20,759 nucleotides of DNA from Abditibacteriaceae bacterium (GTDB taxonomy: Bacteria > Armatimonadota > Abditibacteriia > Abditibacteriales > Abditibacteriaceae): assembly GCA_031425655.1 (NCBI GenBank), contig JANPJS010000317.1, forward strand, positions 1 to 20,759, written 5' to 3'. The notes beneath the pieces were generated by a model, which did no database searches, was not told the DNA's origin, and worked only from the letters and a program-made list of their open reading frames with translations. A program made the translations under genes and the position numbers. This document shows, piece by piece, positions 82 through 20,592 of the stretch (its first letter is position 1; each line of letters starts with the position of its first letter).

Positions 82-2229
82 TTACTTCTTGGCGCCGATG
101 GCTTCTTTGCCTTTGCTCAGAATGTCTTCCTGAATATTGGACGGCACCGGCTCGTAGTGCGACGGCTCCATCGAATAGGTCGCGCGGCCTTGCGACATCG
201 AGCGCATTGTAGTTGCGTAGCCGAACATTTCGGCTAACGGGACGTGAGCGCGCACAATCTGGCTGCCGCCTTTGTCGGGGCGCATTTCCACGATTTTACC
301 GCGACGGCTCGACAAGTCGCCGATGATGTCGCCCATGTAGTTTTCCGGCGTCACGACTTCGATGTTCATAATCGGTTCGAGAATCACCGGCTTGGCTTTG
401 CGAACCGCTTCCTGCATTCCGTAGTTGCCGGCGATTTCAAAGGTCATGGCGTTCGAGTCCACTTCGTGATACGAGCCATGCACCAATTCGACGCGCACGT
501 TCACGAGCGGATAACCGGCCAAAACGCCACGTTCCATCGCTGATTTGGCGCCCTTTTCGACGCTCGACCAGAATTCGCGCGGAACCACGCCGCCCACGAT
601 TTTCGACTCGAATTCGTAGTTGGCGCGCGTGCCGTCTTCCTTTTCTACGGTCGGCATGACGTTGATTTCGATGTGCGCGAACTGGCCCGAACCGCCCGTC
701 TGCTTGACGTGCTTGTAAACCAGGTTGTCCACGCGCTTGGTAATCGCTTCGCGGTAGGCAACCTGCGGCTTGCCGATGTTCGCCTCGACATTGTATTCGC
801 GGCGCATCCGGTCAACCATGATTTCAAGGTGCAACTCGCCCATGCCGCCGATGATGGTCTGTCCGGTTTCGGCGTCGGTGCGAACCTTGAAGGTCGGGTC
901 CTCGGTGCCCAACTTGACAAGCGCGTTGGTCAACTTATCTTCGTCGTTCTTCGACTTGGCTTCGATGGCCTGAAAAATCACCGGGTCGGCGAAGTTGATG
1001 TTTTCCAGCAAGATCGGATTCTTGTCGTCGCTCAGCGTGTCGCCGGTCACAGTCGCTTCCAAGCCGACGGCGGCGGCGATGTCGCCGGCTACGACGAAGT
1101 CCACGTCTTCGCGTTTGTTGGCGTGCATCTTGAGAATGCGCGACACGCGCTCTTTTTTGTTCTTGCCGGGATTCAAAACATAAGAACCCTTCTGCAAACG
1201 GCCCGAATAAACGCGGAAGAAGGTCAATGTGCCGAACTTGTCGCTGATGATTTTGAAAGCCAGCGCCGAAAACGGCTCCGATTCCGAGGCTTGGCGCGTG
1301 GCGCTTTCGCCGGTATCGGGGTTGAGGCCGACAACCGCCGGCACTTCGAGCGGCGACGGCAGATATTTGATGACCGCGTCCAACATCGGCTGCACGCCTT
1401 TGTTTTTGTAGGACGAGCCGCAAATCACCGGCACCATGTCGTTGCGAATCGTGGCTTTGCGAATGCCACCTTCGATTTCTTCGATGGTCAACTCTTCGCC
1501 GCCGAAGAATTTCTCCATCAGCGCGTCGTCAGTTTCGGCGACCGCTTCGATGAGCATAGCGCGATATTCGTCAGCTTTGTCCTGCAAATCAGCGGGAATA
1601 TCTTGAATTTCGTAAGTCGAGCCGAAATCTTTGCTTTCGATGTAATAAACAGCTTTCATCGCTACAAGGTCAACGATACCTTTGAAGTCAATCTCGGCGC
1701 CGATGGGAATTTGCAGCGCGACGGCATTAGCTCCCAAGCGGTCTTTGACCTGACCCAACACTTCGTAGAAGTTGGCGCCGTCACGATCCATTTTGTTGAC
1801 GTAAGCCACGCGCGGCACCGCATAGCGGTTGGCTTGACGCCAAACCGTTTCCGACTGCGGCTGCACGCCGCCGACAGCGCAAAACACAGCGATCACGCCG
1901 TCTAAAACGCGCAGGCTGCGCTCGACTTCAACGGTAAAGTCAACGTGGCCCGGCGTGTCAATGATGTTAATGGTGTGAGAAGGGATGCGTCGCATACCAT
2001 CGGCAGTTAAATCAAGACCCCACTCGCAAGTGGTAGCCGCCGAAGTGATGGTGATGCCGCGCTCCTGCTCCTGCTCCATGTAATCCATGGTCGCAGCGCC
2101 TTCATGCACTTCGCCGATGCGATGCACGCGGCCCGCATAAAACAGAATACGCTCGGTCGTCGTGGTTTTGCCGGCGTCAATGTGCGCCGCGATGCCGATG
2201 TTCCGTAAATTCGCTAATTTGTCAGACAC
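82..2229 (-). CDS. fusA: Elongation factor G
   Basis: 715 aa; [10 protein letters not shown]-loop, ERGITI, DTPGH and NKMD GTPase motifs, EF-G domain IV/V signatures ([19 protein letters not shown]); GTG start after AGGAAGG; downstream of rpsG. Confidence 0.98.
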
Positions 2230-2322
2230 AAAAATCCCTTCCTATAATTGCGTGGATAATGCTGATTTTCGCCTACAAATCACGCTTTGCTTGCTTCGCC
2301 CGGCGAAAGGGCGCGTTGGAGT

Positions 2323-2404
2323 AAAAAAGCCTGCCTCTATACGCTGAAAACGCCCCCAGGTTGCAACCGCATTTGCAGGACAAAGGCGGCTGGCTGGGGG
2401 CGTT
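2323..2404 (-). other. Structured RNA element in rpsG-fusA spacer (11-bp stem, inner hairpin, possible pseudoknot, U-tract)
   Basis: Perfect inverted repeat AACGCCCCCAG 2349-2359 / 2394-2404; inner TGCAA/TTGCA; 2384-2391 complementary (one bulge) to 2328-2336, followed on the minus strand by T6. Confidence 0.45.
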
Positions 2405-2441
2405 CTATGAATGCGCGAAGCGAAAACGAATCGCTGAGAAT

Positions 2442-3445
<1,004 letters not shown>

Positions 3446-19584: not shown

Positions 19585-19648
19585 ATTGCCTCGTCTTCAA
19601 TTGAAATATACGATAGAAAAACCATTAAACGCCCCTCCAATAACTCCA

Positions 19649-19720
19649 CAGCGGGGGCGGGGATCGAACCCGCGCTCTTCCGATTAACAATCGGACGCCT
19701 TACCACTTGGCCACCCCGCT
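19649..19720 (-). tRNA. tRNA-Asn(GTT)
   Basis: AGCGGGG/CCCCGCT acceptor, TCCGA-TTGTTAA-TCGGA anticodon arm, GGTTCGATCC T-arm, G73; CCA not encoded. Confidence 0.93.
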
Positions 19721-19745
19721 AAAACGTAAAAATACTCGGTAGAAA

Positions 19746-19817
19746 TGGGCCGCAAAGGAGTCGAACCTTTGCCTGTCAGATTAAAAGTCTGCGATGCTGC
19801 CTTTACACCAGCGGCCC
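19746..19817 (-). tRNA. tRNA-Lys(TTT)
   Basis: GGGCCGC/GCGGCCC acceptor, GCAGA-CTTTTAA-TCTGA anticodon arm, AAAGG-TTCGACT-CCTTT T-arm, A73; CCA not encoded. Confidence 0.9.
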
Positions 19818-19818
19818 G

Positions 19819-19893
19819 ATAGAATTGTGAATTAAGAATATAGAATTTAGAAAATAGATTTCTAAATTCTTCATTCAAAATTCTCAATTCTAT
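19819..19893. repeat. Inverted array of NNGAATT heptamers forming an AT-rich hairpin in the Ser-Lys spacer
   Basis: TAGAATT GTGAATT AAGAATA TAGAATT TAGAAA, then the reverse units; 19842-19853 / 19859-19870 pair perfectly, as do 19819-19827 / 19885-19893. Confidence 0.8.
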
Positions 19894-19896
19894 TCA

Positions 19897-19979
19897 CGGA
19901 AGGGACAGGATTCGAACCTGCATAGCCAGAGGCTTATCTGTTTTCAAGACAGACGGGGTGCCAATTCCCCAACCTTTCC
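19897..19979 (-). tRNA. tRNA-Ser(TGA)
   Basis: GGAAAGG/CCCTTCC acceptor (one A-C mismatch), TCTGT-CTTGAAA-ACAGA anticodon arm, variable arm AGCC-TCT-GGCT, G73; CCA not encoded. Confidence 0.9.
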
Positions 19980-20062: not shown

Positions 20063-20073
20063 AAAATCACCGA

Positions 20074-20145
20074 CGGGGACAGCGGGAATCGAACCCGCTC
20101 CGACAGGCCGACAACCTGCTGTGCTGACCGTTACACCATGCCCCC
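20074..20145 (-). tRNA. tRNA-Asp(GTC)
   Basis: GGGGGCA/TGTCCCC acceptor, GCAGG-TTGTCGG-CCTGT anticodon arm, GCGGG-TTCGATT-CCCGC T-arm, G73; CCA not encoded. Confidence 0.9.
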
Positions 20146-20174
20146 AAATTTTCACAAGCCTCGATATCGTGCAA

Positions 20175-20268
20175 TATAGCGTTTCTCAGAAAAGATGCAC
20201 CATTGCGAAGCGAATCTTAAACGTCCCGCTCGCACTTTGATGTTGCATTCAATCTGAGAAACGCTATA
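20175..20268. mobile_element. 94-bp MITE-like hairpin element with TA ends (IS630-like)
   Basis: Perfect 16-bp terminal inverted repeat TATAGCGTTTCTCAGA (20175-20190 / 20253-20268), extending imperfectly inwards. Confidence 0.55.
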
Positions 20269-20311
20269 AAAACAAAAAAGCCCGCTGCCGGAATATCCTC
20301 GGCAGCGGGCT
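20268..20311 (-). terminator. Intrinsic terminator (attenuator) between the leader ORF and the tRNA array
   Basis: 12-bp stem AGCCCGCTGCCG/CGGCAGCGGGCT (20279-20290 / 20300-20311), running on the minus strand into TTTTTTGTTTTT. Confidence 0.88.
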
Positions 20312-20339
20312 GGAGCGCACGACACGTCACGACAAAAAT

Positions 20340-20510
20340 CTATTTTCGTCGTTTGCGATGAGCCTCAGCCTGCTGAGCCAAGAATATATTCTGCGAATTG
20401 GTTTGATTCTTTTTATCCGATGCCGAACGCGAGACGCCGCCAAGCGACACGGATAGAATCGCGCGTTGCTGACAATCGGAATTTGAAAAGTGGTTCAGAA
20501 CGGTAAACAT
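20340..20510 (-). CDS. Putative 56-aa attenuator leader peptide of the tRNA array (absent from ORF track)
   Basis: MFTVLNHFSNSDCQQRAILSVSLGGVSRSASDKKNQTNSQNIFLAQQAEAHRKRRK*; lies between promoter and terminator; 25/56 codons are Asp/Gln/Ser/Lys/Asn; no clear SD. Confidence 0.6.
   Translation of the reverse strand: MFTVLNHFSNSDCQQRAILSVSLGGVSRSASDKKNQTNSQNIFLAQQAEAHRKRRK
20366..20387 (-). promoter_or_regulatory. Antiterminator segment
   Basis: AUAUUCUUGGC(UC)AGCAGGCUG can pair with CAGCCCGCUGCCGAGGAUAU (20312-20293; terminator 5' arm plus loop) with 2 G-U pairs, 1 mismatch and a 2-nt bulge. Confidence 0.65.
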
Positions 20511-20563
20511 GGTCGTCGAAAAAAATCAAAATTTGTGTCGCATATTTCAGCAGACAAGCGAAT

Positions 20564-20592
20564 AATATATTTCTTTATTTATAGTCTGTCAA
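20564..20592 (-). promoter_or_regulatory. Near-consensus sigma70 promoter of the leader/tRNA operon
   Basis: TTGACA (20592-20587)-N17-TATATT (20569-20564). Confidence 0.8.

Follow-up and report, generated by a model that had tools for sequence, protein, structure and literature searches.

Contig JANPJS010000317.1 of an Abditibacteriaceae bacterium (assembly GCA_031425655.1), analysed here as one window of 20,759 nt, carries on its minus strand a block of five tRNA genes preceded by a promoter-like site, a short leader open reading frame (ORF) and an intrinsic terminator. Within the leader RNA an antiterminator competes with the terminator, and we find that this RNA switch is real and conserved. 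The most likely interpretation is that the known principle of attenuation is here applied to a new target, namely spare tRNA genes placed under feedback by their own codons. The parts of the locus are as follows, in the order of transcription.

20564..20592, minus strand: promoter-like site of the sigma-70 type, TTGACA-17-TATATT, 11 of 12 consensus positions in a promoter scan
20547..20555, minus strand: segment at the 5′ end, complementary to 20376-20368 and a possible transient protector of the antiterminator in RNA that is not being translated (folding)
20340..20510, minus strand: leader ORF of 56 codons (ORF list), enriched in cognate codons in its own frame only
20388..20420, minus strand: control codons 31-41, encoding SDKKNQTNSQN; the five downstream tRNAs read 10 of these 11
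20366..20387, minus strand: antiterminator strand, its core at 20387-20377 pairing with the loop and the upper 5′ arm of the terminator
20364..20377, minus strand: small hairpin CUCAG-CAGG-CUGAG, transient in folding
20329..20352, minus strand: stop-codon hairpin of 10 bp with one G-U pair and loop UAGA, nested in the antiterminator fold
20268..20311, minus strand: intrinsic terminator, 12-bp stem and U run (fold, inverted repeat, covariance-model family)
20175..20272, no strand assigned: element of 98 bp that separates the terminator from the first tRNA and resembles a miniature inverted-repeat transposable element (MITE), its imperfect terminal inverted repeats being 29 nt long
20072..20146, minus strand: tRNA-Asp(GTC), supernumerary, 57% identity to the copy on contig C152
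19991..20063, minus strand: tRNA-Gln(TTG), supernumerary, 66% identity to the other copy
19897..19979, minus strand: tRNA-Ser(TGA), supernumerary, 69% identity to the other copy
19746..19817, minus strand: tRNA-Lys(TTT), supernumerary, 72% identity to the other copy
19648..19721, minus strand: tRNA-Asn(GTT), supernumerary, 60% identity to the other copy

For each of the five array anticodons the genome has a further tRNA gene, and identity between the array genes and the copies compared is only 57-72%; we therefore regard them as spare genes. A third tRNA-Asp call, on contig C261, aligns poorly to the array copy. The promoter scan shows no minus-strand site from the terminator through the first three tRNAs, so that these three rely on read-through of the terminator. 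The terminator stem is a perfect 12-bp inverted repeat (20311-20300/20290-20279) followed by the U run; a simple terminator scan missed it because that scan takes loops of 3-8 only. The leader stop codon, UAG at 20342-20340, sits inside the UAGA loop of its hairpin.

The locus belongs to a family of such modules. A DNA search across 41 genomes turned up related arrays, and a covariance model built from 12 terminators was run on 27 genomes of Abditibacteriaceae. We examined 28 model matches, the strongest plus two weaker ones, with many weaker matches outside the count: 24 are modules, spread over 13 of the 27 family genomes and four of the six genera, and four are ordinary gene-end terminators, which were used as controls. 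Every module has a promoter-like site, an ATG-initiated ORF of 31-85 codons and a stop codon 16-34 nt before the terminator. Directly behind the modules lie tRNA genes in 20 cases and protein genes in three, and in one the tRNAs follow only 800 nt on. The arrays are short, with 1-17 contiguous tRNA genes.

The named records that carry a module are labelled Abditibacteriaceae. Outside the family, the terminator model, which sees only this terminator sequence, has no match in four other genomes of the class; in a 151-genome sample of the phylum it gives two weak matches, neither with tRNAs, and other attenuators would escape it. A search with the terminator pattern returned no match in viral contigs and at least 119 stretches in genome contigs, mostly unrelated terminators among the matches listed. 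Twelve metagenome matches resolve into three duplicates, one unrelated terminator and eight new modules, in all of which the antiterminator starts 40-57 nt before the stop. One metagenome locus, L229, is truncated.

One line of evidence for feedback is the match between leader codons and the tRNAs behind them. In the window, 10 of the 11 codons directly before the antiterminator are read by the five array tRNAs, which has a probability of about 2e-4 allowing for 46 windows. Over the whole leader 25 of 55 codons are cognate against a background of 0.23 (z 3.95), and this enrichment is specific to the frame, the other five frames giving z between -0.53 and 0.75. Across 12 array types, each represented by one leader, the match at the amino-acid level scores 38.1 against 15.6 +/- 4.5 in permutations, and the match by codon 31.6 against 7.8 +/- 4.6; no permutation out of 200,000 did as well in either case. 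Leader sequences are wholly different, yet their codons track the tRNAs behind each: the leader of an Arg/Cys/Asp/Ser array carries CRCDRRSDRSDR, leaders of Gln/Asn/Leu arrays carry LQNLHLLQNL, and the one before a lone tRNA-Asn has nine Asn in 55. The enrichment in cognate codons also depends on position. In the 12 codons before the antiterminator they number 99 of 144 against 43.3 expected, whereas those after it show no pile-up (55 of 159 against 49.7). The same 12-codon window holds in the six new metagenome loci with arrays, where 2 of 720 permutations match as well after one array was corrected by eye; the first four tRNAs of that array carry a small insertion and had been missed or miscalled. 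Coding constraint on the leaders is seen in seven homologous pairs, in which synonymous divergence exceeds nonsynonymous divergence (pS 0.48 vs pN 0.27) and all length differences are multiples of 3. A Pfam search of the leader peptide matches no family.

The RNA fold supplies a second line of evidence. An earlier, sequence-only reading of this DNA had proposed that terminator and antiterminator exclude each other, that a ribosome reaching the leader stop melts the structure nested in the antiterminator so that the terminator forms, and that an upstream stall leaves the antiterminator intact. Its geometry stands. The antiterminator starts at codon 42 (ATA, 20387), right behind codons 31-41 (20420-20388); the pairing of about 20 nt between 20387-20366 and 20312-20293 comprises 19 pairs (11+3+5) with a duplex energy of -25.8 kcal/mol; and the 10-bp hairpin with the UAG in a 4-nt loop is present at 20352-20329. 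Against shuffled sequences the region folds better than all (z = -4.33, 0/200), the antiterminator core with the terminator top and loop reaches z = -2.52 (1% of 300 shuffles), and the stop-codon hairpin z = -2.03. Mutual exclusion was borne out by folding of the growing transcript, in which the lowest energy belongs to the antiterminator up to the point where the terminator 3′ arm is nearly complete, and to the terminator afterwards.

The effect of the ribosome was modelled by masked folding, in which the free RNA is folded for each ribosome position with 7 nt past the A-site codon masked and 0-8 nt of the terminator 3′ arm hidden. With the A site at or before codon 39 the antiterminator has a probability of 0.92-0.99 with 2-8 nt of the 3′ arm hidden and 0.98-0.99 with 4-8 nt hidden, so an upstream stall indeed leaves it intact. 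The terminator forms from A-site codons 41-42 on. Thus the proposed gating by the ribosome holds while the need to reach the stop does not, the flip coming, in masked folding, as the ribosome moves over codons 40-42 at the end of the control run. Forbidding the stop-codon hairpin hardly shifts the balance between antiterminator and terminator, and its melting is therefore not the flip. The CUCAG hairpin, which had been suggested to sequester the antiterminator, exists at 20377-20364 but offers no lasting sequestration: its probability is 0.55-0.82 before the terminator arm emerges and 0 once that arm is out, and it comes back only in the terminated fold. Without a ribosome the antiterminator of this locus reaches 0.93-0.99 at the decision point while the 3′ arm is partly hidden, and so general translation failure may also open the switch.

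Other roles for the small structures were tried. The stop-codon hairpin was rejected as a stabiliser of the antiterminator (little effect when forbidden in folding) and as a polymerase pause hairpin (pause consensus behind it 2/16 vs 2.0 expected), and the CUCAG hairpin as a sequestering element, being displaced when the terminator arm appears. The 5′ end helix has, with transcription presumed to start near 20557, a probability of 0.88-1.0 before the terminator arm is out and 0 after. In a test for a protector (1:2) helix the antiterminator is, at the decision point, the preferred fold of the naked RNA, and the 5′ end helix protects only transiently.

The antiterminator and the stop-codon hairpin are both seen again in homologues. 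Shuffle tests of the stretch before the stop against the terminator loop and upper arm give a negative z in 16 of 17 representatives (combined z -7.9), and the stop-codon hairpin reaches a combined z of -6.2. Antiterminator enrichment is missing from three of the four gene-end control terminators. The position-restricted form of the antiterminator test was chosen after a first 120-nt search proved noisy and misplaced the window's own duplex. Taken together, the antiterminators of the 17 representatives fit their own loops better than those of others: only 97 of 200,000 sets of swapped pairs are as good. The pairing starts cluster near a point 45 nt upstream of the stop codon. In the two closest homologues both partners are exchanged, loop GAGAGAAA going with TTTTTCTC and loop GAGAATTT with AAATTCTC. 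In the terminator stem, six of eight pairs change on both sides across 13 homologues. With 6 nt hidden, a stall yields the antiterminator and arrival at the stop the terminator in 16 of 24 modules, a count that rises at 7 hidden nt and falls at 4-5.

Together these observations make it very probable that the locus is a ribosome-mediated leader-peptide attenuator, which sets the spare tRNA block under feedback from its own decoding activity. RNA polymerase would start near 20557 and a ribosome would translate the 56-codon leader, whose coding constraint is seen in the homologues. As long as the decoding of Asp, Gln, Ser, Lys and Asn codons is not slowed, the ribosome should move past codon 41 and cover the antiterminator, so that the terminator, as in the in silico folds, forms and the tRNAs are presumably off. 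If any of the five charged tRNAs runs short, the ribosome would stall in SDKKNQTNSQN, leaving the antiterminator just downstream to capture the terminator loop and upper 5′ arm. Polymerase would then read through into the five tRNA genes, and their products would relieve the stall. On this model, the bacterium probably makes the array tRNAs only when its ribosomes run short of them. The locus has the marks of a classical attenuator: a constrained short ORF between promoter and terminator, a run of related control codons, an intrinsic terminator before the first gene and, in silico, an exclusive antiterminator freed by a control-codon stall and covered on passage. It departs from the classical type in what follows the terminator, since the regulated genes are tRNA genes and neither make nor charge a sensed amino acid. 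In 12 modules of relatives the 20 downstream proteins scanned include no synthesis or charging enzyme for a sensed amino acid, and none follows the array in the window.

Several results weigh against this interpretation. The finished transcript at equilibrium favours the terminator even with a stall (0.44-0.80), and because it does so in most states the choice must be kinetic. Eight of the 24 modules fail to switch at 6 hidden nt. On a MAFFT alignment of 13 modules, whose rows are out of register, RNAalifold recovers the terminator only; in the same alignment the named antiterminator is 71.7% paired (23/500 shuffles) with covariation at 80/500. Column-wise covariation of the antiterminator is thus not shown, as the leaders do not align in register. 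No Shine-Dalgarno-like motif precedes the leader at 20340..20510; such motifs are present in 8 of the 24 family leaders and before 353 of 1335 long ORFs of the genome. The permutation values overstate independence, because array types share ancestry. Among 19 family arrays scored for whole-leader enrichment, one truncated array having been left out, three show none (G002_C4, G013_C45, G014_C35). In the six new metagenome loci the whole-leader match is weak (52/720 permutations, or 35/720 with the one array corrected by eye), and the leader of L228 does not match its array. A match at the isoacceptor level beyond the amino acid is absent overall (122 vs 119.8 expected).

The last result accords with a classical sensor of amino-acid starvation, in which the ribosome is stalled by uncharged tRNA and the additional tRNA serves to speed scavenging or recovery. 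The geometry resembles that of the trp, his and thr leaders, and the match is at the amino-acid rather than the isoacceptor level. This alternative differs only in purpose, since the sensor cannot tell the two causes apart. We consider it unlikely, as neither the part of the window behind the array nor the set of 20 scanned downstream proteins includes a biosynthesis or synthetase gene, and extra tRNA should not raise the level of charged tRNA when the amino acid is limiting. By the same reasoning, that extra tRNA does not cure an amino-acid shortage, loss of functional tRNA (cleavage, damage or overload) is favoured over starvation as the trigger, at about even odds.

A sensor of translation stress in general would open the tRNA block upon any slowing or absence of ribosomes, by antibiotics or failed initiation, with the codon match being secondary. 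The folding is in keeping with this: without a ribosome the antiterminator wins here, and a stall is effective at any position as far as codon 39. So are the three modules that lead to RNA-repair-type or unknown genes without tRNAs, and the long arrays whose leaders lack whole-leader enrichment (G013_C45). Published cases point the same way, the Anabaena tRNA operon being induced by many ribosome antibiotics (PMC8421152) and the E. coli leader toiL sensing several antibiotic classes (PMC12121999). Such a sensor, however, leaves unexplained why the control codons vary with array content and cluster before the antiterminator. We judge it distinctly improbable as the whole explanation, and it is compatible with a feedback attenuator as a second input. 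Finally, the terminator might be constitutively leaky and silence horizontally acquired tRNA genes, with ORF and alternative fold incidental. In its favour, acquired arrays of tRNA genes are often almost silent (PMC8421152), the completed transcript prefers the terminator fold, and a MITE-like insertion lies in the operon. A codon enrichment specific to frame, position and array, pN below pS, an antiterminator matched to its own loop and a fixed spacing all speak against it and make it highly implausible.

Attenuators of amino-acid operons include trpL, hisL, leuL and pheL/pheM, and the multivalent leaders thrL and that of ilvGMEDA. The feedback attenuator proposed here shares with them a short translated leader with control codons, an intrinsic terminator that is read through upon stalling, and an antiterminator that overlaps the terminator 5′ arm. 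In contrast, the regulated genes are tRNAs reading the control codons rather than enzymes or synthetases; it is in this defining target that the switch is unlike the multivalent thr and ilv leaders. Furthermore, the number of amino acids sensed is five here and reaches as many as a dozen in relatives, the leaders are longer (31-85 codons), there is no clear 1:2 protector, and a separate hairpin nested in the antiterminator contains the stop codon. A 2010 account of leader attenuators (PMC2965389) names Proteobacteria, Actinobacteria and Firmicutes, and the present phylum lies outside those.

The tRNA genes of the Anabaena PCC 7120 trn operon and of L-arrays are controlled by TrcR, a DNA-binding repressor acting at promoter repeats (PMC8421152, PMC10272220). 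Both there and here supernumerary, divergent tRNA genes stand apart from the housekeeping set and are tied to translation stress, with a link to RNA-repair genes (rtcB there; Ro60, Hen1 and RlaP here). The two differ in their control, by a promoter repressor in Anabaena and here by an RNA switch tuned to the content of its own array; 'attenuat' and 'leader' are absent from the main texts of both papers. The array of the window resembles L-arrays in its supernumerary tRNAs, divergent from housekeeping copies (57-72%), and departs from their long arrays with an HNH gene in having five genes only and no HNH-type ORF in the 250 nt upstream to the contig end or among the scanned neighbours. T-boxes likewise respond to the state of tRNA by forming either a terminator or an antiterminator; they do so by direct binding of uncharged tRNA, with no translation involved, and the genes under their control are those for synthetases, biosynthesis and transport (PMC4052509). 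A T-box riboswitch (Stem I with specifier loop, T-box bulge) was rejected here, as an Rfam scan of the window matches the five tRNAs only and no riboswitch or leader family. The toiL upstream ORF of E. coli topAI-yjhQ also senses ribosome stalling, in that case by antibiotics; according to PMC12121999, it acts on translation initiation with Rho-dependent termination, whereas here an intrinsic terminator is switched and the codons match the regulated tRNAs.

We found no description of attenuation of tRNA genes by a leader of their own codons in the literature searched, with subscription journals and supplements outside that search. The regulation of individual bacterial tRNA genes is said to 'remain largely unknown', with the promoter repressor as the first indication (PMC8421152). 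If true, a leader that tests the codons its downstream tRNAs read would be a direct negative feedback on tRNA supply, and the oldest known RNA switch would gain tRNA genes as a new output. With their differing codon sets and arrays, the 24 natural variants could be tested with simple reporters and offer compact sensors for the depletion of chosen tRNAs.

The genes next to the modules bear on what the spare tRNAs are for. RNA-repair families score above the Pfam cut-off beside 6 of 12 modules scanned (20 downstream proteins), namely Ro60/TROVE (2), Hen1 (2) and RlaP (4), in overlapping sets, and two of the three modules without tRNAs lead straight to RNA-repair genes. These neighbours in relatives hint at tRNA damage as the trigger; as Ro60, Hen1 and RlaP genes they also suggest a purpose for silent spare tRNAs. 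The array of the window itself ends at a convergent DUF2071 gene, with no RNA-repair gene beside it. Tentatively, and leaning slightly against it, we raise a broader reading: that Abditibacteriaceae possess a family of codon-programmed attenuators, their leaders rewritten with array content, which also gate RNA-repair operons and so provide, through RNA alone, a damage response against phage attack or toxins that cleave tRNA.

Several individual modules are of note. At L195:1110-3502 and L212:1199-4194 they stand ahead of RlaP and Hen1 genes, one directly and one behind a lone tRNA-Asn. At L194:1075-2300 and L228:560-1000 the attenuator is followed by tandem non-coding repeats with tRNA-like T arms, which neither ARAGORN nor Rfam names and which in L194 precede a Ro60/TROVE gene; these are probably Y-RNA-like RNAs. 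L206 has a weak YrlA match. An attenuated operon at L206:243-5693 and L198:249-1826 encodes an 86-amino-acid ORF, a 554-amino-acid protein, a HEPN-domain protein and a ThiF-family protein; the start of the 554-amino-acid protein resembles a weak Ro60-vWA match in L198.

Other arrays also deserve mention. The window's genome (G000) holds a second module on contig C61 (L191:85-1100), with a WLHRR leader run before His, Arg, Leu, Trp, Leu, Leu and Phe tRNAs, the array being cut by the contig end. Contig C217 of the same genome has an odd tRNA cluster at 2292-2635 (Cys, unknown, Ala, Trp), with no leader or terminator upstream. In L227 (2016-2483, 392-481, minus strand) the array tRNAs Asp, Glu, His and Gln carry a short hairpin-like repeat, inserted 5′ in the anticodon stem, and a fifth tRNA has this repeat in its variable region; ARAGORN misses or miscalls these tRNAs. 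Two Spirochaetaceae records, L067 and L073, show a similar terminator behind a short ORF that contains the run LLGLLLAL and is likely the leucine-type leader of an operon of protein genes.

Within the window, a five-codon ORF at 20526-20543 (minus strand) lies upstream of the leader start in the 5′ untranslated region and may affect initiation of the leader. The MITE-like element, inserted at the end of the terminator U run, has four copies elsewhere in the genome (contigs C207, C189, C289 and C327), 100% identical. An AT-rich palindromic repeat at 19819-19893, between tRNA-Ser and tRNA-Lys, gives 48 BLAST hits on 24 contigs of the genome, occurs also in genomes of the same genus and contains a weak promoter-like site. 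At the far end of the contig, unrelated to the switch, translation identifies the ribosomal genes rpsL-rpsG-fusA at 82-3445.
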